Source: Bacillota bacterium
Lineage (GTDB): Bacteria; Bacillota; DULZ01
Direction of reading: 5' to 3'
DNA: 64,000 nucleotides
Assembly: GCA_050951405.1 (NCBI GenBank)
Contig: JBMNIZ010000016.1
Coordinates: 65,544 to 129,543 of the forward strand
Part shown: piece after piece, positions 2,490 through 44,137 of the stretch
How the letters are laid out: each line of letters starts with the position of its first letter
Numbering within the stretch: position 1 is the first letter of the stretch
Notes under the pieces: generated by a model
The model's input: the letters and a program-made list of their open reading frames with translations, nothing else
What the model was told of the DNA's origin: nothing
The model's database searches: none
Translations under genes and position numbers: made by a program

Positions 2490-2740
2490 AGTGACATTTT
2501 ATCAAGATAATTAACAAGATGACATTATCATAAGATAACAACACTGAAAAGGTAAGTTGTAAAATTAATTGCCGCATTTAATAAAAAATAGAGACTCAAG
2601 GCTAATGTTAATGGCCATGATAAAATCGACATAAATGGTCACGAAAAACCCGCAAAACCGGTCATTTAGAAAAGGAAAAAAGCTCGTTCCCTACAACATT
2701 TTCATTGGAACCAAAACATTAAAGAAGGGAACGAGCAAAA

Positions 2741-4222: not shown

Positions 4223-5007
4223 TTAGACAAATACCAACCGCCGATCGGAAAACCCTGGAACAGAATTTAAAAAGGTTAAGACTTCCCCATATTAGAAACA
4301 TCCTTGACGATGTTAATGAATTGGCGCTGGAAGAAGAACCATCCTACCTGGATTTCTTAGCCTATGTTATTAACAAGGAGGTGGAACATAGAGACAAGAC
4401 CCAACAAGAAAAAAGAATGAAAAGAGCCTGCTTTCCCCAGATAAAGACTTTGGAAGAATTTGATTTTAGTTTCCAAAACAGCATCACCCAACAAAGCATC
4501 TATGATCTGGCAACCCTTCAATTTATCGAAGCCAAGGAGAACATCATCTTTCTGGGTCCACCGGGAGTAGGCAAGAGCCACCTGGCCATTGCCCTGGGAG
4601 TTAAGGCAGTGCTAAAAGGTTACCAAGTCCGTTTTTACACACTCACGGACCTCATTGCCGAGCTTTATGCAGCTTTAGCCGATAACAGCCTGAACAGAAA
4701 GATTAACAATATCTTAAAAAATGACCTTATCATTCTGGACGAACTGGGCTATGTGTCCATGGATGAAACCGCATCAGACCATATTTTCCAGCTGGTCACC
4801 AAAGCTTACGAAAACCGTTCTTTGATCATTACCAGCAACCTGGATTTTGGAGAATGGGGCACTCTTTTTGTGAACATGAGTACTGCTGCAGCTATCTTAG
4901 ATCGCTTACTACACCATGCCCATGTGTTTAACCTTAGGGGGAACAGTTATCGGGTAAGAAACCGATTAATACAACCAACAAATAAGATAGCGGCAACTAC
5001 AGGCTAA
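4219..5007 (+). CDS. istB: IS21-family helper ATPase IstB (AAA+, Walker A GPPGVGKSHLA), 262 aa
   Basis: Translation shows a Walker A motif and a DnaC/IstB-like sequence. Confidence 0.85.
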   Translation: MIRQIPTADRKTLEQNLKRLRLPHIRNILDDVNELALEEEPSYLDFLAYVINKEVEHRDKTQQEKRMKRACFPQIKTLEEFDFSFQNSITQQSIYDLATLQFIEAKENIIFLGPPGVGKSHLAIALGVKAVLKGYQVRFYTLTDLIAELYAALADNSLNRKINNILKNDLIILDELGYVSMDETASDHIFQLVTKAYENRSLIITSNLDFGEWGTLFVNMSTAAAILDRLLHHAHVFNLRGNSYRVRNRLIQPTNKIAATTG

Positions 5008-5188
5008 ATAAACCGGATTAAGCGAGTGCGAATTGCCTAGGAGGCGTTCCGCTACGCTCCACTGCCTCCTAGGCAATTCCTCTACCGTTATCGCAAGGAT
5101 TAAATTCTGTATGACTGCTGGTTTTTCATGGCCAAAATTGCTGGTTTTTTAGTGACCAAAAATGCGGTTTTTCAAATGGCCATTGACA

Positions 5189-5217
5189 TTTAATAAAAAA
5201 TAGAGACTCAAGGCTAA
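5189..5217. repeat. 29-bp direct repeat tttaataaaaaatagagactcaaggctaa, also at 2577-2605, flanking the IS21 insertion (apparent target duplication of IS30 left-end sequence)
   Basis: The uninterrupted IS30 copy 2 (63617-63660, reverse complement) has this sequence only once. Confidence 0.75.
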
Positions 5218-5271
5218 ACCTCTGATATGTTTAAGGTAACTACGCTTAAAAACATAAAGGAGGCAAAGCAC

Positions 5272-6330
5272 ATGAGTCAACTCAATTGTACCACGACTTC
5301 CCGCCGCTTTAAACACATCACTGTAAAAGAACGCTATCAGATTGAAATTCTTCTAAAGGAGAAGAAGTCACCCAGCGAGATAGCAAAGCTGTTAGGCAAG
5401 CATAAGCGAACCATCGAACGTGAGATTGCCCGTGGAACTGTCAGGATGCTGAGAAGCGACCTGGTTTATGTTGATAGATACTGTGCAGATACAGCAGAGC
5501 GAATATACCGGGAGAGAGCTGCTAATAAGGGAGCATGCTTAAAGATCGGTCATGACCATGGACTAGCCGATTACATTGAAAAAAAGATTATCAAAGAGGG
5601 ATATACCCCTGACGCAGTCATTGGCGAAATCCGGGCAAAAGGCTTAAAATTTAAGACTAGTATATGCACAAAAACGCTCTATAACTATATCGACAAAGAA
5701 GTATTTGCAAATATAACAAATAAAAACCTTCCAGTAAAACGAGTACCTAAAAAAAATCGCCATAAGAGGGTACGAGTTGCCCACAACAATCTAAAAGGCA
5801 GAAGCATTGAAGAAAGACCTGCGGCAGCTAATACTCGTGAAGAAGCCGGCCATTGGGAGATGGATTGTGTTGTAAGCGGCAAAGGGAAAGGCAAAGCCGC
5901 ACTCTTAGTTCTAACAGAACGCAAGTTTAGAAAAGAGATTATCCGAAAGATGCCGGAAAAGACACAGAAATCAGTGAAGAAAACGCTGGATAGGCTTGAA
6001 AGAGAGTACGGAGCACGCTTTTCAGAAGTGTTCAAAACCATTACGGTAGATAACGGAAGCGAGTTTCTTAACAGTGTAGAATTAGAGAGTTCAATCAGAA
6101 AGCCGGGCACTCATCGGACTAAAATCTATTATGCTCACCCATTCAGCGCATGGGAACGTGGGTCCAATGAAAATGCTAATAAGCTAATACGTCGGTTTAT
6201 TCCAAAGGGCACAGATATCAGCAAGCTTAAACAGAAAGATATTAGGCGAATTGAGAACTGGATGAATAATTACCCAAGAAAAATTCATGGATATAAATCT
6301 GCCAATGAGATGGCAAAGATGGCAGTATAA
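5272..6330 (+). CDS. IS30-family transposase (HTH plus DDE), ~352 aa from the Met with an RBS (aaggagg N7 ATG)
   Basis: Translation MSQLNCTTTSRRFKHITVKERYQIEIL... has an IS30-like HTH and rve core; identical ORF at 62513-63571 on the minus strand. Confidence 0.8.
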   Translation: MSQLNCTTTSRRFKHITVKERYQIEILLKEKKSPSEIAKLLGKHKRTIEREIARGTVRMLRSDLVYVDRYCADTAERIYRERAANKGACLKIGHDHGLADYIEKKIIKEGYTPDAVIGEIRAKGLKFKTSICTKTLYNYIDKEVFANITNKNLPVKRVPKKNRHKRVRVAHNNLKGRSIEERPAAANTREEAGHWEMDCVVSGKGKGKAALLVLTERKFRKEIIRKMPEKTQKSVKKTLDRLEREYGARFSEVFKTITVDNGSEFLNSVELESSIRKPGTHRTKIYYAHPFSAWERGSNENANKLIRRFIPKGTDISKLKQKDIRRIENWMNNYPRKIHGYKSANEMAKMAV

Positions 6331-6523
6331 TCAGAGGATGCCAAAATATGGGTGGCAATTAAACTTGCAATTCCCCTGATGGGAAAAATTCTGCTAAGAT
6401 ATTGACTTCCAGAAAGGAGTATATTAAGCTGAAATTGGACCGATGGGTTTAATACCTGAACCAGCGGATCAAACATTTGACTGAGGAGTTTTCTGCACTG
6501 TTCTTGTCACCGAAGGAGGAACA

Positions 6524-7144
6524 ATGGTTACTAAGGAATCCCGTAAAGAAAAAGAAAGAAACTTTAGAAGAAAAATAATCGCTGATGCGGCCGAAAGACT
6601 TTTTTCCGCAAATACTTTTGAATTCGTCACGATGGAGGACATCGCCAGTGAAGCGGAATTTGCCAAAGGCACTCTTTATCAATATTTTAACAGCAAGGAT
6701 GATATTTTTGCCTATGTGATTTGCCGCAGCATCGATGAAATCTGCGAAAAAATCAAGAAAGAATGTTTGTCTGAGCAGACCGGACAGGAATCCCTGGAAA
6801 AGCTCATTGCTATTTATTACGAGTACTTACAGGAACGAAAAAACCTGTATATATCTTTCATCCGCCTCCAATTAAGCAACGCCTTACCGGAAGAAATTGT
6901 GACCAGAGTAACGAATTCACACCAGCAGAAAATGAAACTGGTGCAGCAGGTAATTGAACGCGGCCTTGAGGAAAAAATTTTTCTCCATGAGGATGCACAA
7001 ATGCTGCTGAAGACCATTGACGGCATCGTCAGGGGTTTTAATTTTACTTTTATCAGCGATGAATATGTAATAGACAGAGAAGAAAGCATTGGTTTAATAA
7101 AAAAGGTGCTATTCGGGGGAATTCTGGCTAAACGAGGCAGGTGA
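6524..7144 (+). CDS. TetR/AcrR-family transcriptional regulator, 206 aa
   Basis: N-terminal TetR HTH (IIADAAERLFSANTFEFVTMEDIASEAEFAKGTLYQYF). Confidence 0.8.
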   Translation: MVTKESRKEKERNFRRKIIADAAERLFSANTFEFVTMEDIASEAEFAKGTLYQYFNSKDDIFAYVICRSIDEICEKIKKECLSEQTGQESLEKLIAIYYEYLQERKNLYISFIRLQLSNALPEEIVTRVTNSHQQKMKLVQQVIERGLEEKIFLHEDAQMLLKTIDGIVRGFNFTFISDEYVIDREESIGLIKKVLFGGILAKRGR

Positions 7145-7206: not shown

Positions 7207-8613
7207 ATGGCAGGCATCGATTGGAGTTTCTTTGTAAGCATGGCTTACCTCTGTGTTTTTCTGTTGATTGGTACCTTTTTGCGTGCTCACTTGCGAATTC
7301 TACAAAGATGCTTGATTCCTGTTCCCATTATTGCCGGTTTTTTAGCAATAATATTTGGACAGTATGTGTTTAAGGTCATTGACCCGGATGAAATGGCTAC
7401 CTTAGTTTATCACTTCCTCACCCTATCATTTATTGCCATGGGTTTACGCGGCTCAAGAGTCAAACATAGTTACGGGACTATCACCACTCTTTTCATCCAC
7501 AATTTCGGCCACAATATTCAAGGTTTAATCGGCCTTTTTTTTACTCTTTTTCTTTTGCTCACCTACCTACCTGACATCTTCCCTACTTTTGGTATCATGC
7601 TCAACCTGGGTTTTGCCAACAGTCCGGGAGTAGCCTACAGCATCGGTACTGCCTGGGAAGGAATGGGTTTTGCAGGTGGAGGTCAAGTAGGTTTAACAGT
7701 GGGGGCTATCGGCTTTTTGGTTGCTTATGTTCTTGGTATTATTCTTGTCAATTGGGGTATTCGCACCAATAAAACTCACTATTTCAAAGGAATGGATGAA
7801 ATTCCCCAATCAGTATTTCGGGGTATCATCAAAAAAGATGAAGCCAAAGTGGAAGCAGGCAAACAAAATATGGCCCCAGAAGCTATGGATTCACTGACTT
7901 TGCATGTGGCCATCGTCGGAACAATTTTTTTAATGACTTACTTTTTCTTGATCAATCTTACCGGATGGATGGCCGGTTTTGGAGATCTGGGTCAAGACCT
8001 GGCCAATGTTATCGGTGGTTTTGGTTTCCTTTTCGGAGTATTGATTGCCTTTGTGGTTCGTAAAATATTGTTGACCACTAATTTGGACTATCTCATCGAT
8101 GACGGACTGTTGAGCAGATTGGGCGGCACCTTTGTAGATTTGATGATCTTGACTGGTATTGCGGGTATCTCTTTTGTAGTCATCAAAGCCTACCTGTTGG
8201 AGATCATCCTGCTCAGCATTATTGGCACTATTTGCATTCCTTTGACCACATACTATTTTGTTGATAAAATGCAGATCGACTTCAAGTTTGAACGGTTTAT
8301 ATCCTTATTTGGCATGCTCACCGGTACGGTGGCCTCGGGACTGGCCCTGCTAAGAATTGTTGACCCCCACTACGATACACCTGTTGCCGAGGATCTGGTG
8401 TATGCTGGAGGAATGAACCTGATTTTATCATTGCCATTATTATTCTTAATCAATATTCCCGCTTTGGGCTACGTCAAGGGGGAATCTATAAAGTCCATCC
8501 TCTTTGTAATCGGATGCCTGGCTGCATATTTTTTGACCATGTTTCTGGTCTGGAAGATATATGCGGTCTCTTATTTTAGGAAAAGAGAAAAATCAGAAGT
8601 CCTGGGCCAATAA
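7207..8613 (+). CDS. Sodium/glutamate symporter (GltS/ESL) family membrane transporter, 468 aa
   Basis: Multi-TM protein with sequence blocks that align to E. coli GltS (CLIPVPIIAGFL..., ...SPGVAYSIGT..., ...LTGTVASGLALLRIV...). Confidence 0.55.
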   Translation: MAGIDWSFFVSMAYLCVFLLIGTFLRAHLRILQRCLIPVPIIAGFLAIIFGQYVFKVIDPDEMATLVYHFLTLSFIAMGLRGSRVKHSYGTITTLFIHNFGHNIQGLIGLFFTLFLLLTYLPDIFPTFGIMLNLGFANSPGVAYSIGTAWEGMGFAGGGQVGLTVGAIGFLVAYVLGIILVNWGIRTNKTHYFKGMDEIPQSVFRGIIKKDEAKVEAGKQNMAPEAMDSLTLHVAIVGTIFLMTYFFLINLTGWMAGFGDLGQDLANVIGGFGFLFGVLIAFVVRKILLTTNLDYLIDDGLLSRLGGTFVDLMILTGIAGISFVVIKAYLLEIILLSIIGTICIPLTTYYFVDKMQIDFKFERFISLFGMLTGTVASGLALLRIVDPHYDTPVAEDLVYAGGMNLILSLPLLFLINIPALGYVKGESIKSILFVIGCLAAYFLTMFLVWKIYAVSYFRKREKSEVLGQ

Positions 8614-8787
8614 TCCTAAAACACTTTTAAGAAGCCGCCAAAGCCGGATAAAAAACTGTTTTAGTTGGCTAGGATCTTATATTACTGTTGCCGGAGAGGG
8701 CACTCCCGCCTTGGATCATACTTGAACAATCTTTCAGGGATTGCGGCATCCAAAAAGCAATTAATCCTACTATATAAACATTGAACA

Positions 8788-8833
8788 GGCAAGGGTACTA
8801 TCCTGAAGGGCAGCACCCTTGCCTAATTTTTCC
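8788..8833 (+). terminator. Candidate terminator after the symporter gene (9-bp GC stem ggcaagggt/acccttgcc, long loop, then taattttt)
   Basis: Read from the sequence; the loop is unusually long. Confidence 0.25.
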
Positions 8834-9188
8834 AAACAATGTGCAGCTGTCGCCTAATTTATTCATCATAAATGAATTTGTGCCAGGCCGGGCCTTTTGA
8901 TTGCAACATCCAAATAATCTTATAAATTATCTAAAGATATTATAATTATGTGTAAATCCTATAAATTTAACAAAGACACTTAATAAATTTATTAGTAGTA
9001 TTTCTTTGAATAGTGCTACACTCATGACGATGCGACTATTATTATGATCATGATCCTTTTACCGGATCTTGAGCCGAAAGCAGAAAGGGGTGATTTCCGG
9101 AAATACTTGATTGAGCTCGAAGCTGCAAAATAAACAGGACCAGCAAGAACCGATTTAGGGTTAAATACAATCAAGAAACCCTTAACCG

Positions 9189-10559
9189 GTGTCAGAACCC
9201 CTGTTTTCTCTCGTCTCTGTACTAAAAAATTCGAAAGGAGAGGAAAAATTGAGCCCTGAACTGATCACCGTATTAATGTTTGCCTGTCTTTTTATCAGCT
9301 TATTCATGGGCCTACCTGTGGCTCTCGGCCTGGGCGGTACCGCAGTTTTATTTGCCGCATTGATGAGCCCTCATACTTTACTTGCTGCTCCCAGCGCGTT
9401 TTTCTATACTCCCTGGCAGCATGTTCTGGTGACGATTCCCTTATTTCTGTTTATGGGGAATCTGATCAGATATTCAGGTATCGCTGAAGCTGCCTATGAT
9501 GCGGCATATAAATTAATCGGCCACCTACCTGGTGGATTAGCCATGGGTACAGTAGCAGTCTGCACTCTTTTTGCTGCCGTCACTGGGATCACTCCCCCGG
9601 CTACCATTACCATGGGGCAAATTGCTTACCCCTCCATGATGAAGTATAAATATCACAGAGGGATAGCCATCGGTGCCATCGGTGCAGGTGGAGCCTTGGG
9701 TGCCCTTATTCCTCCCAGTGTACCCTTTATATTTTACGGTCTTTTAGCTAAAGAATCCATAGGGGCTCTTTTCTTGGGGGGGATCGTACCGGGATTGCTT
9801 CTGGCCTTCTTATACATGGCATATATTGGTATCAGGTGCAAAATACAGCCTCATATGGGACCGGCCTTACCTCCAGATGAAAGATTTACTTTGAAAGAAA
9901 AAGTCACGTCCCTGCTAGCTATCTGGCCCTTCATTGTTCTCATTATCGTTGTATTAGGGGTCATCTGGCTCGGTGTGGCTACTCCCGCTGAAGCAGCCGC
10001 TTTCGGCGCTGCCGGCGCTCTTCTCATTAACCTCATTTATCGCAGGCTTACCTGGGAAATATTTAAAACTTCCATTTCCACCACAGTAAAACTGGTGGGA
10101 ATGGGATTCTGGATCCTGATCGGCGCCAATCTGTTTGTGAACGTCTTCAGCGCCTTGGGCTGTCAGGACGTTGTTACCTCCACTGTTCTGGGCATGCCCG
10201 GCGGTAATATGGGTGTCATTATTATGATGATGATCGTCATCATGATTTTAGGCATGGTGATGGATGACTGGGCTATTATCATGCTGGTCACTCCCCTGTA
10301 TGTACCCATCCTCCACGAGCTCGGCATCTCCACCCTCTGGTTCGGTATACTATTCATTGTTAATATTCAGATCGCTTACCTGTCACCGCCATTCGGTTTT
10401 GTTTTGTTCTGGATTAAGAGCATATTACCCAAGGATGTCACCATGGGGGATGTTTATTTATCGGTCTTCCCGTTCATTATCCTGCAAATCATCGGTTTAT
10501 CTTTGTTAATCATTTTCCCGGAAATCGGTTTATGGCTACCTAGTACGATGCTTAAATAG
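9189..10559 (+). CDS. dctM: TRAP transporter large permease subunit (DctM family), 456 aa as given; the real start may be an internal Met
   Basis: Polytopic membrane protein with a DctM-like sequence (GLPVALGLGGTAVLFAALM...); followed by dctP and dctQ. Confidence 0.8.
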   Translation: MSEPLFSLVSVLKNSKGEEKLSPELITVLMFACLFISLFMGLPVALGLGGTAVLFAALMSPHTLLAAPSAFFYTPWQHVLVTIPLFLFMGNLIRYSGIAEAAYDAAYKLIGHLPGGLAMGTVAVCTLFAAVTGITPPATITMGQIAYPSMMKYKYHRGIAIGAIGAGGALGALIPPSVPFIFYGLLAKESIGALFLGGIVPGLLLAFLYMAYIGIRCKIQPHMGPALPPDERFTLKEKVTSLLAIWPFIVLIIVVLGVIWLGVATPAEAAAFGAAGALLINLIYRRLTWEIFKTSISTTVKLVGMGFWILIGANLFVNVFSALGCQDVVTSTVLGMPGGNMGVIIMMMIVIMILGMVMDDWAIIMLVTPLYVPILHELGISTLWFGILFIVNIQIAYLSPPFGFVLFWIKSILPKDVTMGDVYLSVFPFIILQIIGLSLLIIFPEIGLWLPSTMLK

Positions 10560-10594
10560 ACGGATTGCTTGACTTATTGCCCATGCTCAGGACC

Positions 10595-10654
10595 TCTGTT
10601 TATTTCACTATACTTCATACCAAGTCTGTTTATTTCACTATACTTCATACCAAG
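10595..10654. repeat. Perfect 30-bp tandem duplication (tctgtttatttcactatacttcataccaag x2), ~95 bp upstream of dctP
   Basis: Read directly from the sequence. Confidence 0.9.
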
Positions 10655-10749
10655 ATGGAATAATACACCAAAGGAGGTGTTTATAAACGATAATTGTTGT
10701 ACAGTACCTCTGTAAACGAAAGTATTATCAAGGGAAAGGGGTATGAGTA

Positions 10750-11865
10750 ATGAGAAAACATTTGACCTTGTTACTTGCAGTGCTGCTGGTATTCTGCGTT
10801 ATCGCTGTGGTTGGCTGTGGTGGGGGCTCAAAACCACCGGCAGAAGAACCCAAAGGAAATGGTGCCGAAGCTGAATATGGGCCTCCGGATACGGTAACCA
10901 AGTGGGTCTTCCAGCCCTGCTTTGATTCAGGAGACGCGGGCTGGGCCAAAGGTGTAGTGCCCTGGATTGAAGAGGTGGAAAAAGTAACCGAAGGCACGGT
11001 TCAAATTGAGTTGCTGGCTGCCGGCTCCATTACCAGTGGAGACGAAGCCTTTGGTGCCTGTTCTGCCGGGATGATCGATGTTTATGCCGGCTGGGCCACT
11101 GTCTATGGTGGAGACATGCCTGAAGGGATGTTGGCCTATGGATTGGCCATGGGTGCCGATACTCCGGAAGAAGCCTGGGAAGCCATGTGGGGAGATCCCA
11201 AATATCGAATCGGAGAAATTGTGCAAGAAGCCGCCCACGAGCATAATGTCCACTGGATAGGCTGGACCTGCCAAGGGCCCAATTCCGTTTTCTCAAACTT
11301 CCCCATCCGTCGCCTGGAGGATTTCGCCGGGCATAAACTTAGAGCCGGCGGCCCGCAAGCCATCTTCCTGCAAGCCATGGGGGGCACACCCGTCTCCCTG
11401 CCTGCCAGTGAAATTTACATGTCTATCACTCTAGGCACCATCGAAGGGACCCTCTGGGACTACTGCCGGCTATGCCGTGATATGAAGTATCACGAAGTAA
11501 TGTCAAATATGCCATGCTGCCCGGCTGGTGCCCCACCCAACACCAGGAGATCTACGTCAATCTGGACAAGTGGAATGCACTGAATGACTGGCAGAGAGAT
11601 CGGATCAGCGAAGTCTTCGAGCCCAATTACTTCAAAACCAGCCAGACTGCATGCTGATGGCGTTGAGGCCGCCATCCAGGCCTTGCAGGACCAGCGGCGG
11701 TGAGGTGATCACTCTGTCTGACGAAGAGGTGGAAAGGATGCGTGTCAAAGCCATAGAAGAAATATGGCCCAAGGTCGCCGCATTCCTCAGAACGCTGTAC
11801 CCGGGGTGTTGAACTGTGGAAACAATTCCTCCAGGATAAAGGAAAAATATAAGATAGAATAGTAT
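10750..11865 (+). CDS. dctP: TRAP transporter substrate-binding lipoprotein (DctP family); reading frame broken at least three times between ~11470 and 11820 (pseudogene or assembly errors)
   Basis: Lipoprotein signal LLAVLLVFCVIAVVGCGG and a DctP-like body; the C-terminal segments (...YAMLPGWCPTQHQEIYVNLDKWNALNDWQRD..., ...GEVITLSDEEVERMRVKAIEEIWPKVAAFL..., ...ELWKQFLQDKGKI*) are in three different frames. Confidence 0.7.
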
Positions 11866-11893
11866 ACGATCAGAAGGGGGCGTATTGGGCACG

Positions 11894-12408
11894 ATGGGGG
11901 TCTGGACCAAGGTTGAGCGGCTGATTGATTCCCTTAGCCGAATTATTGGGCAGAATAGGTTGGCTTGATCGTGATTTACAGTCTGGTCTTCGGACTGACA
12001 GACGTGATCCTGCGCTACTTTCTCAACCGGCCCTCCCTGTGGATCTCTGTCACCGTACAGTATGCCATGGTGTTGCTGGCGTGCGTATCCGGGGCATACG
12101 CCCTCAACCACGATGCTTTTGTGAAGCTGGACCTTTTCTATGCTCGTTTTTCGCCGCGGACTCAAGGCAATCTGCGACATATTGACCTTCTCTCTTTACG
12201 TTGCTATACTTGTCTGTGCTCATCTGGAAGGGAATGCAAGCAGCCGCCCATTCCATTGCCATACGCCAGAGTGACACCAACGGCCATTCCCATACCTCTT
12301 TATCATCTCAAATCCTTCATACCTGTAGGAGCATTCTTTACACTTCTGGTAGCTATTAAGAAACTGGTTCAGGACTTCCAGATCTTAATTAAAGGTAGTG
12401 CAAACTAA
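11894..12408 (+). CDS. dctQ: TRAP transporter small permease (DctQ family), frame-disrupted (N-terminal MGVWTKVERLIDSLSRIIGQ in another frame)
   Basis: Translation fragments in two frames match the DctQ topology and N-terminus. Confidence 0.6.
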
Positions 12409-12451
12409 AAGCTACCTGAGTGTAACAACATGACGGGCACCCCCTTCATTA

Positions 12452-12487
12452 TAAAAACCCCCCAGGTTGTACCTGGGGGGTTTTTCA
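12452..12487. terminator. Bidirectional intrinsic terminator between convergent dctQ and the M20 gene (aaaaaccccccagg-ttgta-cctggggggttttt)
   Basis: Perfect 9-bp GC stem flanked by A5 and T5. Confidence 0.85.
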
Positions 12488-12510
12488 ACTAAAGATCACT
12501 AGATGATTCC

Positions 12511-13646
12511 CTATCCTTCCCAATTGAGCATAGTGGCCAAATAGATCTGGGAAGCTTTCAAAAGCTCATCTAATGATACTCTTTCATTTTCCTTATAAAC
12601 ATTGTCTTGGAGTTTTCCCGGCCCAAAAATAACTCCTTTAATTCCACGTCTTCTGTACACTGTGCATTCAGCCGTTCCAATATAACCGGAATATGTTACC
12701 GGAATCCCTACTTGAGAGCAGGATTGGGCCACTGTCCGGACAATTTTATCATCACGGCATATTTCCCAAGGTTCTCTTCTCTCCAGTTCGTTGATCTCCG
12801 CCTGAAAATCGGGGATTTCATTTTTCAGACATCGAAATATATTCTCCATCTCCTGCCAGATGCAATCAGGGGTCTGACCCGGTACCAATCGCACATCCAC
12901 ATTGAGAGTACAATGGTCCGGGATGACTCCCCAAGCTTCTCCGCCGTGGATCATGGTGGTTTGCCAAAAAGTTTCTCCCAGGACCGGGTGTTTTTGGAGA
13001 GAAAAAGAGTGCTCCTCCATCTTATTCATTAGCTTCAAGGCTCTGTGGATGGCATTGACCCCGGCCCCTTTCACAGAAGCATGAGCCGTCTGCCCAAACA
13101 CGGTGACTTCCGCCCACATGCGACCTTTACTGCAGATCTGCACTTCCAGATTGGTAGGTTCGCAGCAAATCGCCCTTTCCACATCAGAGATGAAAGAACT
13201 CTCTGCCAACTTCTTTGCTCCCATCATTAAGTTTTCTTCATCAACCGTAGCCGCTAAGATGATGTCACCTTTGGGCCTGACTTTGTTGGCAGCAAGAGTG
13301 CCCATGGCCACCATCACAGAAGCCAACCCGCCCTTGGCATCGGCGGCCCCTCTGCCATACAGAAATCCGTTGCTGATTTCACCCGAAAAAGGGCCATAGT
13401 CCCAGCGTTTAGCCTCATAAGAGCTGACGGGGACCACATCCATATGGCTGGAAAACAAGATAGAGGAGGAGCCTCGCCCTTCTCCCGGTAACCGGGCCAC
13501 AACATTATACCTTCCGGGAAGCACTTCTTGCGATGAACAGTCTCAATGCCCTTGGCTCTCCATATAACTCCGCACATATTCGGCCCACTTCCGCTCTCAT
13601 TGCCGGGGGGGTTGATGCTGGGCATTCGCACCAATTGCCGGGCCAC
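12511..13646 (-). CDS. M20A-family metallo-amidohydrolase (ArgE/DapE/N-acyl-amino-acid deacylase type); one frameshift near 13520-13560
   Basis: Motifs SSHMDVVPV, GRGAADAKGG and EENLMMGAKKL plus a dimerisation domain; the N-terminus (MARQLVRMPSINPPGNESG) is in an overlapping ORF. Confidence 0.75.
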
Positions 13647-13936
13647 CTGCAGTCAGAGTCATCGATATTGATTAGATCAATGATAGCTATTGTCACCACT
13701 CTTCAAAAGCGCCATCATGCAAGATCTCCTCGCTGCTTTCTGCAAAACATGACGATCGAACCTGAAAAGATAGAGAAAATTCCTGAGAATAAGTCAGGAA
13801 ACCCTTTTAAAAAATTATGCGAAGTAAAAACACGTGAAATGACCAAAGCAACACCCTCTAGTGCCCCGGGGAACAGGTATGCAAAACCCGGCGCTATAAT
13901 GCAGCTCTTGGTCGATTCAGAACATATCAACCAATT

Positions 13937-14008
13937 CATGTGGGAGCACCCTCCCTTGAGTCCAGATCTACCAGCTAGTAGATTGACAAAGGGAGGGGCT
14001 CCCACATG
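13937..14008. repeat. 21-bp inverted repeat (catgtgggagcaccctccctt ... aagggaggggctcccacatg) with a 30-bp spacer, in the ~470-bp gap between xsc and the M20 gene
   Basis: Read from the sequence; one indel or mismatch between the arms. Confidence 0.8.
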
Positions 14009-14115
14009 AAAACATACGGAACCCCGCTAGAAGTCAACTTGAGCAATTTTGATGCCTGGTCCCGAGCATTTATTGATTCGTCCGCGAGCTGCCTCATCTT
14101 CCCTTACGCCTGCTC

Positions 14116-15851
14116 TTACCAGTTCCGGTGATCCAAGTGGGCATACTTGGGCAGCAAGCGGGTGGGCAAAGCCAGGGCGTCTTTCCGGAAGGGAGGCGCC
14201 AGCATGCTCCCGTCTACCATGAATTCCAGCACCACCGGCACTTCCGAACGTGAAGGCTTCGTCCAAGTGCGTCCTTGATGTTCTCCGGCTTGTCGAATCT
14301 GAATGCCTTTGGCGCCCATGACTTCCGCAACCTTGGCCCAGCTGGGGGCTTTGATGTCCGCTCCCACAAAACGGTTGTTGTAGAAGTCGACCTGGTTTTT
14401 CTTTTCCGCTCGCCCAGGCCCCGTTGTTGAAGACGCAGGCAATGACGGGCAGGTTCTGCTCGACGGCGGTCATGACTTCGTAGAAGCTCATCCCCCAGGC
14501 CCCGTCACCCACAATGGCCAGGACCGGGCTTTCGGGGCTGCCCAGTTTGGCGCCCAAGGCCGCCTGTATAGGCAAAGCCCGTGTTCCCGAAGGTCAGGCA
14601 GGCAATGTGTTTTTTGGGCTGGGTGAATCTCAGGTAGCTATTGGCTGTGGAAGAAACGTTACCGATATCGGTGGTAACGATGGTGTCCTTGGGCATGAAG
14701 TTGGCTATTTCGTAGAGTGCTCTTCTGGGGTTAATAGGGTTACCATCTTTTAGAGCCAGTTCTTTGATTTCTTGGTCCCAGGCTTGTTGTTTTTCTTTGA
14801 TTTTAGCCATTTTTTCCTGGTCTACTGGTCTTTGTTCTTTGGCTTTTAGGATGTTTAAGATTTCTTGAGAGGCTATTTTGGCGTCTCCTACGATGCCCAC
14901 TTCTACCGGGTGTCTTCTGCCGATCTGGGTAGGGTTGATGTCGATCTGGATGATTTTTTGGTTACCGGTAAAGTAGGTGATGTCGTATTGGGGCAGGGTA
15001 CCAAAGACTGAGAGTCTGGTACCGATAGCAAAGATCACGTCTGCTTCTTTGATGGAGTTCATGGCTCCTTTGGAGCCCATGTAGCCGATGGGTCCCACCC
15101 AGTAGGGGCTATCGCTGGGGAAGGCATCGTTATGCAGGTAGGATACGGCTACCGGGGCAGTCAAATACTCCGCCAGTTGGGCAATCACGTGGATGGCACC
15201 TGCGTCTACTGCTCCTCTTCCGGAGAGGATGGCCGGGTTTTTGGCTTCGGACAGTATTTTTGCTGCTCTTTCAAGGATTTCTTTATCCGGTGTTTGTTTG
15301 GTGGTGGCCCGGTATTTTTCCGGTGGCAGGATCTCGTCTTCCAGTTCGCCGTAGAAGTAGTCCCTGGGGATGTCCAGATAGACGGGCCCTCTTTGGGCGT
15401 AGGCGATCCGGAAGGCGGTCCTGACACAGTCTGCCGCCCGGCTGGGGTGCGGTACTCTGAAGGCTGCTTTGGTGACTGGTTTGAAGATGGACACCTGGTC
15501 CGCTTCCTGGAAGCCGTCCCAGCCCACGGTGGCGCTGCCGGCCGAGGGGCCTAAAATGACCATGGGGGTGTGGGCATGGTAGGCGGTGGCCACGCTGGTG
15601 ACCAGGTTGGTGATGCCGGGGCCGTTTTGGCCGGTGCAGACGCCGATTTTGCCGCTCACCCGGCCGTAGGCGTCCATCATGTGGCCGGCGGTGTGTTCAT
15701 CGCGCACCGGGATGAATTTGATGCCGGCGGCGGGAAACAGGTCCAGCATGTCCATGAAGGCTGAGCCCACGATCCCGGCGCAGTATTCCACTCCTTCTGC
15801 TACCAGTTGTTCCACGATGGCTTCGCTGGGGGTCATTTTTACTTTTGCCAT
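14116..15851 (-). CDS. xsc: Sulfoacetaldehyde acetyltransferase (TPP-dependent, Xsc); frameshifted at least twice in the 14400-14600 region
   Basis: TPP-enzyme N-terminus ([34 protein letters not shown]...GQNGPGITN), DGAWGM motif and C-terminal [18 protein letters not shown], which match my recollection of Xsc more closely than acetolactate synthase. Confidence 0.65.
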
Positions 15852-15933
15852 TTGTCGGCCTCCTATTAAGTTTTTATTGTCTATGGTCTATGCCAAAGAT
15901 ACCTTGGCTCCAGGGGCAGCTGCTATCGAAAGC

Positions 15934-17316
15934 TACTGATTCTTTTCCAGTGCCGCCCGCACTGCGCTGGCAATCTGATCGATTTCTTCTTTCGTAACAA
16001 CCAGGGCAGGGGCAAAACCCACCACATTATTTAAGCCCGGTATACTTCGGTTGGTTTTGCCGATCACCACCCCTTCTTCTTTCGTTCGCTGCCACAATCT
16101 TATTCACGTACTCTTCGCTGGCGGGAGCTTTGGTCTTTTTGTCTGCTACCAGCTCTATGCCGGCAAACAATCCTCTACCCCTTACTTCTCCCACGGTGGG
16201 GAAGCTTTCCAGTTCCTTGAGGCTTTGCAACATATATGCGCCCATTTCTTTACTTCTGTCGCAGAGTTTTTCTTCTTCAATAATCCGGATATTTTCCAAA
16301 GCTGCCGCCGCTCCACCTGCACATCCCCCGTAGGTGCTGATGTCGCGGAAGTAGGCCAGTTTGTCTTTCGGTTCGTTCAAAAACTGTTTGAAGATTTCTT
16401 CTTTGGCCATGGTAGCTGAAATGGGTACGTAGGAACTGGCCAACCCTTTGGCCATGGTGATCATATCCGGATCCACGTCATAATGCAGGTGTCCAAACCA
16501 TTTTCCTGTCCGACCAAATCCGTTGACCACTTCATCCAGAATCAGCAGCACTTCATATTTCCTGCAGATTTCTTGGATGACAGGCAGATATTCATCCACT
16601 GGGACGATCATGCCGCCCCCTGCGGTCATGGGTTCCAGGATTACTGCTGCAACTGTGTCCGGATCTTCTTTTTTAATGATATCTTCTAAAGCATGGGCAC
16701 ATTCCAGGTCGCAGCCGGGATAAGACTTACCAAAGTGGCACCGGTAGCAAAGACAGTGGGGCATCTCCACAAAGCCGGGTGCCAGCGGCTCATAGTGAGC
16801 TTTCCTTTCCTGTTGGCCTGAAGCGCTCAAGGTGGCCAGGGTTGTGCCGTGGTAATCCCGATGTCGATAGATTATCTTATACTTGGTGTTTTTGTCTCCA
16901 TACTTCAGTTTAAAATACTGCCTGCTCATTTTAAAGGCTTTTTCATTGGCTTCAGAACCGCTGTTGGAAAAATACACCCTTTGCAGCCTAGGAAGCAATT
17001 CAGTCAGTTTATCTGCCAGCTTGATGGTGGGGATATTAGCTAAAGAAAGTGCATAATAGGGCATATTCTTCAACTGTTCATAAACAACTTTTGCTATACT
17101 TTCCCTGCCATAACCCACATTGACGCACCATACTCCTCCGGCTACCGCATCCAAATACTCTTTTCCCGTACTGTCTTTCAGGATACAGCCATTCCCTTCA
17201 ATCATGATGGGAGGCGCCTGCTTCTGAAAAACGCTGTGTTGGGTTAAATGATGCCACAGGTGCTCTAGGTCTTTCTGCTGGAGCTGCTTCAAGTCATTGG
17301 TTGCCTTATTCTCCAT
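15934..17316 (-). CDS. tpa: Class-III (omega) aminotransferase, probably taurine:pyruvate aminotransferase; one frameshift near 16040
   Basis: PLP fold class III sequence; sits immediately upstream of xsc as in known taurine-degradation loci; the true C-terminus (...PGLNNVVGFAPALVVTKEEIDQIASAVRAALEKNQ*) is in another frame. Confidence 0.6.
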
Positions 17317-17651
17317 TCGGGTTAACCTCCTTTATTTTTTTCTTCCCAGCCATGCAGCCCCATCATGGCTTGCCGCGCCACCACAAAATACTGCATAGAT
17401 GAGGAAGTTAAGTTTACTGTACCATGATTGGAAATAGTAGGCTTAATAAAAGGATTTAGTATTTTTTATGAAATCTTTGGAGCTTAAACCGTTCTTATAT
17501 TATCTTTGGCATTATTATTAAAATCCTTGGAACTTTCCTCAAAGAAAAAAGCCGTGCCGCTTAAACCGAAGCACCACAGCTTTTCATTTCAGTTTGTACA
17601 TTATCCGGTTATAACCATAGGAGCGGAAAACAGAGAAAGCGGTGGATTTTT

Positions 17652-18417
17652 ATTTCCATTGAGAAAATTGCCTGCGATACTCAGAGGGACAAATACCCAA
17701 ATTTTTTTTAAAGACAGCAGTCAAATAACTATTGTTACTCAATCCTACCCGGCTGGCAATTTCATCTACGGAATCATTGGTTGACAACAGCAGTTCCTTT
17801 GCCTTGGCAATTCTTACCTCGGTTATGTACTCGGTAATGCCTTGGCCAGTCGTTTTTTTGAAAACAGTGCTGATGTAAGAAGGGTTATAATAGAGAAGCT
17901 CTGCAAAGGTATTGCAAGGTTAGTCTTTGATCGTAATTTTCTAGGATGAATTTCTTGATTTTGCGCACAGTATCATTTTCCTGCTCTCCGGTCACCGCAT
18001 CCTGGGGATGGCCGTGGAGCACCTCTTCTTCTCCATTTCTTTTCTCTTCAATAAAGTCAATCACGCGCTGTATAGATGCTACTAACTCTTGTGGACGGAC
18101 AGGTTTTAGAAGATAGTCGGCAGCTCTTAGTTTCAGGCTGAATTGGAATAGGAAAAACTGCTATAGGCCGTTATAAATATCACTTCCACCCTTTGGTCCA
18201 TTTCTTTAATTGTTTTCACAGCATCCAGACCATTCATTCCCGGCATTTTAATATCGATAAGAATAATCTCCGCCCTGGTCGTACTGAACAATTTTATCGC
18301 TTCATACCCATCAGCAGCCTCCCCCACGATTTTTACCGGCAATTGGCTGTCACAAATCTGCTTGTACAAGACCTGTCTTTCCAGCTCTTCATCCTCTACG
18401 ATCAGGAGCTTGTACAT
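17652..18417 (-). CDS. Two-component response regulator, CheY-like receiver plus AraC-type HTH output (YesN-like); at least two frameshifts
   Basis: REC domain (LLIVEDEELE...ILIDIKMPGMNGLD...) and AraC HTH (...ITEYITEVRIAKAKELLLSTNDSVDEIASRVGLSNNSYLTAVFKK...EYRRQFSQWK*). Confidence 0.7.
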
Positions 18418-18497
18418 GAAATACCTGCCGCCTCCTTTCAACAATCAAGTAATATTGTCAGGCCGTTACTCCCCGAAAACAACCGGCCGTGATGATC

Positions 18498-19763
18498 TTA
18501 ATAATGTGAAAGTTGCAGCAAGCTTCCGGACGTTTTTTCGCCGGGCAACAATACTTTGACCTGGGTCTTGCCCTTTTCCTGAACAATCCTCAACCCGAAA
18601 TCAGCCCCGAAACATAATTGCAACCGGCTGTGAACATTGATCAAGCCCAGGCTATCTTTTTTGACAATCGCGTCCAGACAGTTGGGAAAGTTCTTGACGA
18701 TTTCCGCTGGCATGCCCAATCCGTTATCCTCCACCACCAGCTCAATTCCGTCGTCTAAGGTCCGGCCGCTGATCAAAACGTAGCCATTGCCCTGTTTGGG
18801 TTCAAGACCGTGCATAATGGCATTTTCCACCAAGGGCTGTAAGGTAAAATAAGGCAATTCCACTTCCATCAGCCGGTTATCCATCTCAATTCTATAATTC
18901 AACCTTTCACCAAACCTTATTTTCATTAACTGCAAATAATTCTCCACATTGCGCAGTTCTTCTTTCAGCGTAACTAGTTCACCGGACCTGGTTAAATTGT
19001 ATCTGAGGATTTCTGAGAGGGAGTAAACCACTTCCAAGGCTTCAGTCTTTTTATCTAAGAAAATCAATCCGGACAGAGTATTTAAGGTATTGAAGAGAAA
19101 ATGCGGTTGGATTTGCGATTGAAGATTTTTCAATTCCGCCAAGCGCAAGCTGTTTTCCAGTTCTGTCTTAGTTTTCGATTCTAAAATATGTACTATCTTT
19201 TGTTTCAGTCGCCCTTCCTGTTCTTTTGCCCGAAAAATCAATTCGGTGATATAATTGACCACAAATTGAATCAAGTTGGAGATGGCGGCACACTTTTCAT
19301 GGCTGATCACTTTAATCTGCAAAAAGGAATCCACCAACATCTCCCGAGTAAAGCCCAAATCACTGGTAGCTTTTAACATTTTTCCCAATGTTTTTTCATT
19401 GGGTACTTCCAGGTGGATCTGGCAACAAGTAATTGAACCCAAAAATAAATCTTGCACAATAATCGGCAAGGCCATGACCAAAGCACCCGCATGACAAGGA
19501 GCCATGGCCACCTGCCCTTTGTTGGCCGAGTGAAACCCAACGCTGGCTTTAGATTCGATGCAGCGCCTCAATCCTTTTTCCGTGGAACAGATATATTTAC
19601 AGAAACCGGTATAGTAATTATGCTCCACTAATGGAAATCCTAAATTGTCATTCACATCTATGGTAATATCCATCACATTATTGATACTTTTAATGAATTG
19701 GAGCATTTTATCATTTTCTATGAGAAGCAAAAGTTCCGGTTTTTCTGTTGGCAAGAGCATCAC
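18498..19763 (-). CDS. Sensor histidine kinase with an N-terminal PocR-type ligand-binding domain and no evident TM segments (cytoplasmic), HisKA_3/HATPase_c C-terminus, 421 aa
   Basis: PocR-like Cys/His-rich N-terminus, then QIQPHFLFNTLN (H-box) and a GHKL ATPase (VEDNGLGM). Confidence 0.7.
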   Translation of the reverse strand: MMLLPTEKPELLLLIENDKMLQFIKSINNVMDITIDVNDNLGFPLVEHNYYTGFCKYICSTEKGLRRCIESKASVGFHSANKGQVAMAPCHAGALVMALPIIVQDLFLGSITCCQIHLEVPNEKTLGKMLKATSDLGFTREMLVDSFLQIKVISHEKCAAISNLIQFVVNYITELIFRAKEQEGRLKQKIVHILESKTKTELENSLRLAELKNLQSQIQPHFLFNTLNTLSGLIFLDKKTEALEVVYSLSEILRYNLTRSGELVTLKEELRNVENYLQLMKIRFGERLNYRIEMDNRLMEVELPYFTLQPLVENAIMHGLEPKQGNGYVLISGRTLDDGIELVVEDNGLGMPAEIVKNFPNCLDAIVKKDSLGLINVHSRLQLCFGADFGLRIVQEKGKTQVKVLLPGEKTSGSLLQLSHY

Positions 19764-19999
19764 CCCAAAAGATATTATCGCCCTTTATGCCGGAGCTGAA
19801 AAAAGCCGGTAAAAATAGCAAAAGCAACTTATAAGTAAATAAAATCACAAAATCTAAGCTGCGTCTTTTGCTCAAAATTTTACAGGTCCCATCCAAATTC
19901 CTTTAAAAAAATTTGTTATTCTATTGATTACTGATCTAATCTTTTATAAATATCATATAGCATTTTACTATTTATTTCAATAGCAGCAGTTTTTGCTTT

Positions 20000-21064
20000 C
20001 TATTTGAGCCCATTCCTCTTATAGCTATGTCCCATCCGCGAGGCAAAGTAGAACAGTAGAATCCTGGCAATGGCTGCCGCTGGCACCGCCAACAGCATGC
20101 CCAGAACACCATAAAGCTTGCCGCCCAACAGAAGGACAAAAATTACCGTTAAAGGATGCAGCCCAACGCTGGAGCCCAAAACTTTTGGTGAGATAATATT
20201 GCTCTCCAATTGTTGAACAACCACCATCACCACGAGGACGGAAAGGGCCATCTTTTTGGAATGCAAAATGGCCAGGGCTAGAGCGGGGATGGCCCCAATA
20301 ATAGGCCCAAAGTACGGGATAATATCGGCCAGTCCGGCAATCATACCCAAGAGAAAGGGAAAATCCAGCCCAATGAGAAAAAAACCTGTAGACGTCAGCA
20401 GACCCACGAGCAATGCAACTAGAAGGTGACCTCGGACAAACTTCATCAAAACTTGATCAATTTCCTGCCAAAGGTAGAGAAATTCCCAGCGCCAACGGAC
20501 TGGGATCATCTCCAGAAAACGCCTGCTGATTTCTTTCTGATCGAGGAGGATATAAAAGGCCAGAACAGGAGAGATGATTATGCTGAATGTATGGGAAAAA
20601 ATGCCTAGAAGGCCGCTGATGATTTGTCCCATTGTACCGGTCAAGGCCTGCTCCACATTAAAGATAACGTTATCAATTTCCAGACGAAGGCTTTCCGGAA
20701 TAATAATCCTTTGGTAATCAGCGTAAAAGTCCTGCAAAATTGCATGTACCTGTCTGGTGTAAGTGGGAATGGAATACATCAATACGTCCAGCTGACGCCA
20801 GAAAATAGGAATGAAATAAGTACCCATCAAGGCAAAACCTATGATCAGCAGTAAATAGGTCAGCAGAATACTGCTGCTGCGGGAAAGTTTTTTTTCTTGC
20901 CAAAATTCTACAGCAGGATTTAGTACATAGGCCAAGAAGAAGGCCAGAAAGAAGGGAATGAGGATACTCCTGATCCAATAGAGAAAAACGCCTGCGATAA
21001 ATAGGCCAGCGGCTATCAGAAATAGACGTAGGATTTTGGGGGATATTACCAGTTTATTCACCAC
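20000..21064 (-). CDS. AI-2E (PerM/YhhT/TqsA) family transporter, 354 aa
   Basis: Eight-TM protein with AI-2E-family sequence. Confidence 0.7.
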   Translation of the reverse strand: MVNKLVISPKILRLFLIAAGLFIAGVFLYWIRSILIPFFLAFFLAYVLNPAVEFWQEKKLSRSSSILLTYLLLIIGFALMGTYFIPIFWRQLDVLMYSIPTYTRQVHAILQDFYADYQRIIIPESLRLEIDNVIFNVEQALTGTMGQIISGLLGIFSHTFSIIISPVLAFYILLDQKEISRRFLEMIPVRWRWEFLYLWQEIDQVLMKFVRGHLLVALLVGLLTSTGFFLIGLDFPFLLGMIAGLADIIPYFGPIIGAIPALALAILHSKKMALSVLVVMVVVQQLESNIISPKVLGSSVGLHPLTVIFVLLLGGKLYGVLGMLLAVPAAAIARILLFYFASRMGHSYKRNGLK

Positions 21065-21655: not shown

Positions 21656-22730
21656 TTAGTTCAATAATTTCCGCTCAATAGTGCCTCCACCCACCACCAA
21701 ATCATTTTGATAGAAGACAACAGCTTGCCCCGGAGTGACTGCCTTCTGCGGCTTGCTGAACTCCACTCGTACACCATCCGCAGTCGGTTTAATCAGAGCC
21801 GGCACTTCGGCAGCCCGATAGCGAATTTTCACGGTACCCAGAAAAGGGCCGGTCAACTCATCAAAGGGCAAAAAATTATTATCGATGGAAATGAGGCCGT
21901 CAGCTTTTAGTTGGGAACTATCACCAACAATGACCGCATTTCGGCTGGGATCAATATCAATAACATAGGCCGGATAACCTAGAGCTAATCCCAGGCCCCT
22001 TCTTTGTCCAATGGTATAATGGGCGATGCCTTGATGCTGCCCCAAAACGTTACCTTCCCGATCAAGGAAAGGACCAGGATTTCTGGCCAGCTCAGATCTT
22101 TCTTGAATGAAACGCCTGTAATCATTGTCGGGGATAAAGCATATTTCCTGGCTTTCCGCCTTGTCAGCTACCGGTAGTCCAAGGTGGCCGGCGATTTGAC
22201 GGATCTGCGATTTCAAATAATCTCCCAACGGAAGCAGTGTCCGCTGCAGCTCCCCTTGCCGGAATCCATAAAGAAAATAAGATTGGTCCTTGTTCCGATC
22301 CTTACCTTTAAGTAAAAGGTACCTTTTTCTTTTTTCGTCGTATTTTATCCTGGCATAATGGCCGGTAGCCACATAGTCTATTTCCAGTTCCCCGGCCTTT
22401 TGTAGCAAAGCCTGAAAGCGAAAAATCCGGTTGCATACAACACAGGGATTAGGGGTACGTCCCCTTAAGTACTCCTTGACAAAATAGTCGATTACTTTTT
22501 GAGAAAAAAGATGCTTGAAATTTAACACATAATGAGGAATATCCAGCTTGCCGGCAACCCGCCTGGCATCTTCTATGGCTGATAAGGAACAGCAACCCAC
22601 TTCTCCTTTGGGCAGGGGAGTCATCATCCGGCCAGATTTGCATAGTAACGCCAGTAACCTGGTACCCCTGTTTTTTCAGTAGATAGGCGGCTATAGAACT
22701 ATCTACCCCTCCACTCATAGCCACCAGCAC
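21656..22730 (-). CDS. mnmA: tRNA-specific 2-thiouridylase MnmA; frameshift near 22600
   Basis: N-terminal PP-loop ([10 protein letters not shown]) in one frame, conserved MnmA body in the next; downstream of nifS/nifU as in Bacillus. Confidence 0.8.
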
Positions 22731-42607: not shown

Positions 42608-42658
42608 GTTGTTATCTTGTGATAATGTCATCTTGTTAATTATCTTGATAAAATGTAC

Positions 42659-44006: not shown

Positions 44007-44065
44007 AACACGTTGTTTTAACCTGGCTAACTATTACTCTGCTGGCTGCCTGGCAACGTCAAGGG

Positions 44066-44137
44066 CGAGCTTTAGCGAGTTCATCTTGACCCTTGACGTT
44101 GCCAGACAGCCAGCTATCATCCCAATAGCCAGGTTAA
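44066..44137. repeat. Quasi-palindrome of IS-A copy 2 with its core in the opposite relative orientation to copy 1
   Basis: Core 44090-44113 cgagctttagcgagttcatcttga is identical on the + strand in both copies even though the elements are inverted. Confidence 0.85.

Follow-up and report, generated by a model that had tools for sequence, protein, structure and literature searches.

An ArgE/DapE-family M20 amidohydrolase with a remodelled second metal site is conserved beside taurine catabolic genes and may free taurine from a conjugate

What does a hydrolase of the M20 family do among genes for the breakdown of taurine? This question is raised by a 64,000-nucleotide stretch from a Bacillota bacterium (GenBank assembly GCA_050951405.1, contig JBMNIZ010000016.1, positions 65,544 to 129,543; referred to here as the window), in which an M20 amidohydrolase gene lies downstream of tpa and xsc, coding for an omega-aminotransferase and for sulfoacetaldehyde acetyltransferase. 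The original prediction, made from this locus, was that the enzyme releases taurine from an amide conjugate, for example N-acetyltaurine or gamma-glutamyl-taurine. Comparison with relatives raises this idea from a single-locus guess to a conserved association, from which the function is still inferred, while the two proposed substrates found no support. Our preferred reading, to which we give slightly less than an even chance on the basis of sequence comparison, is that the M20 product is a metallo-amidohydrolase of the cytoplasm, belonging to a subfamily of its own within ArgE/DapE, and that it feeds the taurine pathway.

The evidence that carries this reading is the gene context across relatives. 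Every locus of the M20 clade with enough flanking sequence contains tpa, a PocR kinase/AraC-type regulator and TRAP transporter genes, plus either Xsc or methylmalonate-semialdehyde dehydrogenase (MMSDH). Clade members at 61-93% identity are found with these partners in at least eight distinct locus types from about a dozen related anaerobic bacteria. Three architectures can be told apart (loci are given as L numbers; HK, histidine kinase; RR, response regulator). The first, Tpa-(Xsc and/or MMSDH)-M20-HK(-RR), is present in BICA1-8, L008, L009 and Desulfitibacter. The second, M20-HK-RR-(Ald or PntAB)-Tpa-Xsc-DctMPQ, is present in L011, L098 and partly in L010. The third, HK-RR-Tpa-Xsc-M20 convergent on DctMPQ, is that of the window and L176, with Tpa-Xsc-M20 shared by L097 and L101. 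The individual orders are Ald-Tpa-MMSDH-M20-HK in L003/L009, Tpa-Xsc-(MMSDH remnants)-M20-HK-RR-Pnt-TRAP in L005, and M20-HK-RR-Ald-Tpa-Xsc-TRAP in L011/L098. A sister clade at 46-57% identity also has its M20 gene beside transporters, omega-aminotransferases, MMSDH or bona fide Xsc: L091 reads DctPQM (TRAP)-M20-aminotransferase, L092 holds a carbamoylase-type M20, MMSDH, M20 and SSF, and L093 (Dehalobacterium formicoaceticum) holds an Amidohydro_3 fragment, SSF, M20, PntAB and an Xsc scoring 881 bits. As a control, we considered 70 M20 loci at 27-41% identity among the matches listed in a genome scan, which included one close relative. None of these 70 has Xsc nearby, and their matches to class-III aminotransferases or aldehyde dehydrogenases are weak (26-34% identity) and represent generic paralogs. 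This supports the notion that the link between the M20 gene and taurine catabolism is not a chance neighbourhood.

In the window, the set is arranged as follows (L176, an independent assembly of the same locus, carries these genes intact).

9189-10559, plus strand: TRAP dctM, intact in the window, convergent on the M20 gene
10750 to ~11849, plus strand: TRAP dctP, frame-broken in the window, intact in L176
~11895-12408, plus strand: TRAP dctQ, frame-broken in the window, intact in L176
12452..12487, both strands: bidirectional intrinsic terminator, perfect 15-bp stem, 3-nt loop, A5/T5 flanks, -31.1 kcal/mol, z -4.4
12511..13718, minus strand: M20 (ArgE/DapE-family) amidohydrolase gene, start ATG 13718 behind an AGGAG ribosome-binding site at 13730-13726
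13719..14115, minus strand: spacer between xsc and the M20 gene, 397 bp, conserved with L096, L097, L101 and L176
14116..15851, minus strand: xsc, sulfoacetaldehyde acetyltransferase (TIGR03457), 3' third frame-broken by artefactual insertions
~15939..17316, minus strand: tpa-type class-III (omega) aminotransferase (NF005812, 552 bits against 488), 3' end frame-broken
17650..18444, minus strand: response regulator with AraC-type output domain, in three frames through one +1 and one -1 indel, intact (255 amino acids) in L176
18498..19763, minus strand: PocR-domain sensor histidine kinase, intact in the window

The first 448 amino acids of the window's Xsc score 616 bits on TIGR03457, and the intact L176 allele scores 815 bits against a cut-off of 676. 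A class-III aminotransferase thus adjoins a bona fide Xsc, making this a tpa-xsc taurine catabolic set.

The repeated set comprises a transporter, the M20 enzyme, an omega-aminotransferase and then either Xsc, which is specific for sulfoacetaldehyde, or MMSDH, which takes malonate semialdehyde. It is most simply read as centred on a hydrolase releasing an omega-amino acid with two-carbon spacing from an amide taken up by the cell. In the window and the intact alleles, this product would be taurine. An anionic taurine amide, probably with a short acyl group, would be imported, most likely via the adjacent TRAP transporter, and cleaved by the M20 enzyme to give taurine; Tpa would transaminate taurine to sulfoacetaldehyde, which Xsc would turn into acetyl phosphate and sulfite, and the PocR kinase with the AraC-type regulator would control the set. 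In the relatives with MMSDH instead of Xsc, the same enzyme family would free beta-alanine, which has a carboxylate where taurine has a sulfonate. From this context we infer the class of substrate, the direction in which flux runs and the match of transporter to substrate; N-acetyl and gamma-glutamyl are guesses at the acyl group.

Several points weigh against a hydrolase that feeds taurine into the pathway. The TRAP system might just take up taurine in free form, in which case no obvious substrate would be left for the hydrolase, and comparison with solved structures is uninformative on the ligand of its binding protein, DctP, which resembles only lactate-type and uncharacterised binders (best match 2zzv, E 2e-29). 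In most relatives, the M20 gene is transcribed with the sensor kinase, as an M20-kinase operon, and not with tpa/xsc. A His-to-Tyr replacement at a ligand of the second metal site, described below, means that activity of the M20 enzyme cannot be taken for granted. We know of no taurine-amide hydrolase in the M20 family, and our literature search found no paper tying an M20 enzyme to taurine catabolism or xsc, the only text matches to "M20" being Tecan M200 plate readers.

Taurine is also not the sole candidate amine product for this M20 family, because half of the relatives pair the gene with a beta-alanine-type aldehyde dehydrogenase. In L003, L009 and L092, the enzyme encoded between tpa and the M20 gene is a CoA-acylating MMSDH (TIGR01722, 524 and 458 bits against a cut-off of 448.5), and L092 holds a carbamoylase-type M20 as well. 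In Desulfitibacter alkalitolerans, MMSDH is present as fragments only, between an intact xsc and the M20 gene (L005 8947-9811; L102 415-1252), which would fit a cluster that exchanged an aldehyde step of the beta-alanine type for one of the taurine type. Given these observations, the M20 enzyme might act on conjugates of beta-alanine or other omega-amino acids (N-acetyl- or N-carbamoyl-beta-alanine, or a beta-alanyl peptide), with taurine linked to it only via a shared promiscuous aminotransferase. In that case, the window gene would be what remains of an ancestral beta-alanine cluster that gained xsc by insertion. We consider this unlikely, since at least six locus types have bona fide Xsc and no MMSDH (window/L176, L097/L101, L011, L098, L005 and, in the sister clade, L093) and the M20 gene is intact, with invariant catalytic residues, in Xsc-only loci. 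A tblastn search of the window's spacer between xsc and the M20 gene found no remnant of MMSDH or Ald.

Some of these relatives combine further modules. In BICA1-8-type loci (L003/L009 1-4400; L008 1-900), tpa-MMSDH-M20 adjoin microcompartment shell genes, an acetylating acetaldehyde dehydrogenase, a PduL-type phosphotransacylase, an MFS transporter and a beta-hydroxyacid dehydrogenase. This neighbourhood hints at an isethionate-type microcompartment route, whose signature enzyme would lie beyond the stretch covered. L008 carries two hydrolase modules (2251-6610): one combines an M20 of the His type with genes for an SSF symporter and an MMSDH-like dehydrogenase, and the one next to it combines a Tyr-type M20 with TRAP genes. 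In L092 (4674-10681) the carbamoylase-type M20 lies beside the family M20. Such two-module loci suggest that several conjugates converge on one aminotransferase.

How the M20 gene is transcribed bears on its role. The gene had been described as directly downstream of xsc on the same strand; strand and order hold, but the spacer between the two genes carries a strong conserved hairpin. The spacer measures 397 bp in the window versus 315-348 bp in L176, and the hairpin lies at ~13940-14010 in the window, 14275-14335 in L176 and 3371-3442 in L101, with folding energies of -60 kcal/mol for the chimeric sequence of the window, -33 for L176 and -44 for L101 (z -4 to -7). In L176 it is followed by an A/U-rich stretch. 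The hairpin may be a terminator, an attenuator or a processing site. MMSDH-type relatives have a terminator hairpin and a TTGGAA-17-TACAAT promoter before the M20 gene, and the PocR kinase gene follows 40 bp after it; in the window's lineage, no convincing M20 promoter was found in the spacer. Co-transcription of the M20 gene with xsc is doubtful because of the conserved strong hairpin between the genes and because most relatives have a separate M20 promoter. A small open reading frame (ORF) in the spacer (13715-14005) was rejected, as the indels between lineages are not multiples of three. At the other end of the gene, the perfect bidirectional terminator of the original prediction is confirmed, with T-runs on both sides. 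It is common to the M20 gene, whose stop is 24 nt away, and to the convergent TRAP genes, which end at 12408; a simple terminator scan missed it, since its run of A and its run of T are base-paired with each other. Both tpa (17317-17655) and dctM (8614-9250) are preceded by repeats of a CCAAAGAT-like motif, which may mark sites of the AraC-type response regulator; in the same comparison, no convincing copy was seen upstream of the M20 gene. Rfam matches in 9000-21000 were at chance level only, with no riboswitch or other known RNA.

A role beside the main flux of the pathway has also been considered. The M20 enzyme could serve in metabolite repair, re-hydrolysing N-acetyltaurine that arises intracellularly when taurine meets acetyl phosphate or acetyl-CoA produced by the pathway, or it could make the small molecule to which the cytoplasmic PocR kinase responds. 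Seven relatives with a sigma-70-type M20 promoter after the terminator and the kinase gene 40 bp on are in line with such a role, as is the occurrence of the M20 gene with either TRAP or SSF transporters, which ties it to the pathway and not to one importer. We nevertheless judge this quite unlikely: M20 enzymes are not known to take part in repair in this pathway, and in the window the kinase gene is not adjacent to the M20 gene.

Whether the product could be an ordinary enzyme of its family depends on how closely it resembles ArgE and DapE. The gene contains a long ORF (12511-13524, 337 amino acids), with N-terminal pieces upstream scattered across three frames. It is real, although the span first given for it, 12511-13646, is about 70 nt short at its upper end, the start being the ATG at 13718 behind AGGAG. 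The call as an ArgE/DapE-type M20 enzyme stands: in Pfam, the repaired translation matches PF01546 (Peptidase_M20, 8e-37) with the inserted lid domain PF07687 (M20_dimer, 8e-22) and, more weakly, M28, with no match to Amidohydro_3 (PF07969), and on the NCBIfam model TIGR01910, "ArgE/DapE family deacylase," it scores 231 bits, and the intact allele of L176 scores 235 bits, where the cut-off is 217.6. Scores on the DapE equivalog and subfamily models are below their cut-offs (NF006365, 222 versus 289; TIGR01900, 136 versus 304; TIGR01246, 109 versus 362; NF009557, 145 versus 284), as is that on the ArgE model TIGR01892 (197 versus 297.7 bits), and the YgeY equivalog models are missed by a wide margin (NCBIfam). 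A search of 5.8 billion proteins returned one near-identical sequence (P0001, the allele of L176) and, at 69-77% identity, about eight clusters, including Peptococcaceae bacterium BICA1-8 and Desulfitibacter alkalitolerans; beyond this close clade follow the sister group at 46-57% and then the general family below 45%. An exact-match scan of metagenome contigs with one 28-mer gave no match.

The fold is that of DapE and ArgE (M20A). An AlphaFold (AF2) model of the homolog P0004, 72-73% identical to the window's M20, has a predicted local distance difference test (pLDDT) score of 94.2. In Foldseek, its top match is Enterococcus faecium DapE (7uoi; template modelling [TM] score 0.87, E 2.5e-39, 29% identity), followed by ArgE, other DapEs, 5-nitroanthranilate aminohydrolase, carnosinase CN2 and carboxypeptidase G2. 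The two-domain fold is shared with H. influenzae DapE (5vo3, TM 0.81) and E. coli ArgE (TM 0.73), and so are the catalytic Glu, the His/Asp/Glu/Glu ligands and the lid-domain His. The clade nevertheless differs from DapE and ArgE in its low identity (22-29%), in reaching no equivalog model, in its active-site residues and in a context of taurine/beta-alanine catabolism instead of lysine/arginine biosynthesis. If the product were a peptidase of general function, or a biosynthetic ArgE or DapE, with nothing but its position linking it to the taurine genes, this would explain why the best solved relatives are DapE and ArgE and why TIGR01910 is the only curated model reached. We regard this as improbable, given the unmet equivalog cut-offs (DapE 222 versus 289, ArgE 197 versus 298), the synteny with tpa, kinase/regulator and TRAP genes kept over 61-93% identity, the synteny of the sister clade with transporter, aminotransferase and Xsc, and the lack of arg or dap genes near the M20 gene at the clade and sister loci examined. 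As judged from its sequence, the product has the ArgE/DapE fold and belongs to a subfamily with a remodelled second metal site that is orthologous neither to DapE nor to ArgE.

Across 42 homologs, H87, D122, E156/E157 and the lid-domain His H208 (P0004 numbering) do not vary, and E182, the fourth ligand, hardly varies; the window's M20 has the corresponding metal ligands and catalytic Glu at H83, D118, E152/E153 and E178. The catalytic core is thus intact but for one ligand: the fifth position of the canonical His-Asp-Glu-Glu-His set is occupied by Tyr in the window's protein and throughout its clade. This Tyr occurs only in the window's clade, which reads DNV-Y-KENE versus DNV-H-KENE in the sister group, and the adjacent active-site loop is fixed as ATAECT in place of GTTDGT. 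When the protein is aligned with the DapEs of E. faecium (7uoi) and H. influenzae (5vo3, 3ic1), the Tyr falls exactly on H349, and the loop (ATAEC) falls on GGTSD; the residues matching H349 and G323-D327 of the H. influenzae enzyme are encoded at about 12600-12700 of the window. These replacements suggest that the metal site of the clade is mononuclear or has been rebuilt with Cys or Glu. They could also mean that the protein is catalytically impaired and acts as a ligand-binding or regulatory partner of the PocR kinase, with whose gene its own is tightly linked. DapE with a single metal keeps activity. We find an impaired enzyme very improbable, as the catalytic Glu, three other metal ligands and the lid-domain His are invariant, E182 is nearly invariant, and mono-zinc crystal forms of DapE exist (4o23, 3isz).

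The broken reading frames of the window had called for a repaired ORF, and we asked whether the locus itself is intact. Homolog-guided tblastn placed frame breaks in the M20 gene, xsc, tpa, the regulator, dctP and dctQ, with the kinase gene and dctM intact. An exact-sequence look-up of a neighbouring membrane protein identified four other assemblies of the locus. In L176, a 47.6-kb Joint Genome Institute (JGI) contig, all genes are intact (DctM 436 amino acids, DctP 364, DctQ 169, M20 408, or 397 from a better start, Xsc 576, Tpa 460, RR 255 and HK 420), and the intact 397/408-amino-acid M20 allele is present in L176, L177 and L178. In L176, the 397-residue M20 form spans 12886-14079 and DctP spans 11140-12234. 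Aligned with L176 over 13.5 kb, the window shows 97.0% identity and 313 mismatches, with 91 extra bases and 2 missing. Outside two blocks (11250-12300 and 13250-16100), and in the sequence between them, it is nearly identical to L176, while all 91 insertions fall inside the blocks, in bins that also hold mismatches. The 3' part of the M20 gene up to ~13260 differs from the intact alleles by 2 mismatches and 3 extra bases, and at least 11 artefactual inserted bases lie in its 5' 260 nt.

The origin of these bases can be read from a second allele. L176 and L101 (89% identical in the block) differ at 544 substitution sites, at 231 of which the window agrees with L176 and at 286 with L101, leaving 27 that are unique to the window (16) or different in all three (11). 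Sites of the two types are interleaved inside single 250-bp bins, and at indels the window has a base wherever either allele does (52 + 48 positions). Contigs of the L101 type also have intact genes: L101 and L097 both carry tpa and xsc at full length, and L096 carries an M20 gene that is nearly complete. The pattern fits a collapsed consensus of two co-occurring strains and not a haplotype, and the frameshifts in dctP, dctQ, the M20 gene, xsc and tpa are false because the window carries the union of the indels of two alleles. The need for repair was thus made by the assembly, and intact M20 alleles are at hand in other assemblies. That L001 is an error-ridden contig was partly rejected: its spacer and M20 gene match the intact L176 allele, and therefore the extra bases in that stretch belong to the window. 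Housekeeping genes elsewhere in the window are split or N-terminally truncated as well (24997-25960, 21656-22627 and 54367-54840, with RarA/MgsA as two overlapping ORFs, MnmA starting from profile position 46 and a MobA-like protein from profile position 53), which suggests the same consensus problem. Although the frame breaks do stand in the window's sequence, real pseudogenization of the M20 gene, xsc and tpa in this genome is extremely improbable and was rejected, given the indel polarity of 91 to 2, the restriction of indels to blocks of two interleaved alleles, the mere 27 of 544 sites at which the window departs from both, the intact parental alleles in independent assemblies and the split housekeeping genes. 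The strain-collapse artefact behind these apparent pseudogenes bears on any other finding from the same window.

The idea of a gamma-glutamyl conjugate had leaned on a nearby GltS-type symporter. The genes concerned form a separate unit.

6524-7144, plus strand: TetR regulator, in a separate unit with 7207-8613
7207-8613, plus strand: divergent membrane protein of the ESS/GltS superfamily, whose homologs at 35-39% identity carry PF03616

The protein is a distant member of the ESS/GltS superfamily, but it has no direct Pfam or NCBIfam match, none to PF03616 (Glt_symporter) even at E<=1, and its identity to Vibrio GltS is only 23-30%. Its gene adjoins insertion sequence (IS) elements. Beside TRAP genes it occurs only in the nearest relatives, L094 (88% identity) and L176-L179 (identical protein), and it is absent from every other M20 locus examined; the transporter that travels with the M20 gene is the TRAP system. 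The TetR-symporter unit is probably not part of the M20 system. Being TetR-linked and confined to near-identical relatives, it lends gamma-glutamyl-taurine no real support, and that idea is weak. Mobile elements beside the locus comprise an rve-type transposase, IS21 IstA/IstB and IS30 (window 1143-6330, 42649-44201 and 62462-63680); two of them have further copies elsewhere in the window, and L176 has a Transposase_mut element at the place of the window's IS21.

If the M20 enzyme does supply the taurine pathway, its fixation in the Xsc clusters of Peptococcaceae-like bacteria would define a new entry point to organosulfonate respiration, give a function to a family so far annotated just as "M20 family metallopeptidase" and offer a naturally occurring case of an ArgE/DapE enzyme whose second metal site has been remodelled. 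Conjugates of taurine make up a large pool of sulfur and nitrogen, and their deconjugation gates the production of sulfite and H2S by anaerobes. Known taurine deconjugases are the Ntn bile-salt hydrolases, Amidohydro_3 enzymes and PTER. A more far-reaching proposal is that the Tyr-for-His M20 clade represents a further family of hydrolases for taurine (and beta-alanine) amides, the third after the Ntn and Amidohydro_3 types and unrelated to them, through which sulfite-respiring Firmicutes would feed on small taurine conjugates, and that it also makes a pathway-switching signal, the latter because the gene is co-transcribed with the PocR sensor kinase in most relatives. We put this forward tentatively and hold it to be rather doubtful as a whole.

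Among known systems to compare with the M20 enzyme is NaaS, the N-acetyltaurine amidohydrolase, which to our knowledge is not an M20 enzyme (the sequences were not compared here). The proposed role is the same, namely, freeing taurine from an amide ahead of Tpa and Xsc, and in Cupriavidus necator and Ruegeria pomeroyi NaaS likewise has a dedicated transporter and regulator alongside (PMC4334477). The two systems differ in their partners, which are an ABC transporter and a LysR regulator for NaaS and TRAP with the PocR-HK/AraC-RR pair for the M20 enzyme. Taurine-selective metal-dependent bile salt hydrolases (mBSH, Amidohydro_3) co-occur with tpa, sarD, islA or xsc in anaerobes and did not cleave N-acetyltaurine (PMC13081988). 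They are metallo-amidases that act specifically on taurine amides, with bile acids as the substrates, and they belong to a superfamily other than that of M20, the TIM-barrel amidohydrolases; an Amidohydro_3 fragment adjoins the sister-clade M20 gene in L093. The N-carbamoyl-beta-alanine amidohydrolase of Agrobacterium is itself an M20 enzyme, though of the carbamoylase subfamily (TIGR01879-type), which L092 encodes as a separate gene. This enzyme also accepts N-carbamoyl-taurine. Finally, PTER hydrolyses both N-acetyltaurine and N-acetyl-beta-alanine (PMC13311154); it has a phosphotriesterase-related amidohydrolase fold and is eukaryotic, without operon context, but as one enzyme for the amides of a sulfonate and a carboxylate beta-amino acid it matches the alternation of Xsc and MMSDH around the M20 gene.

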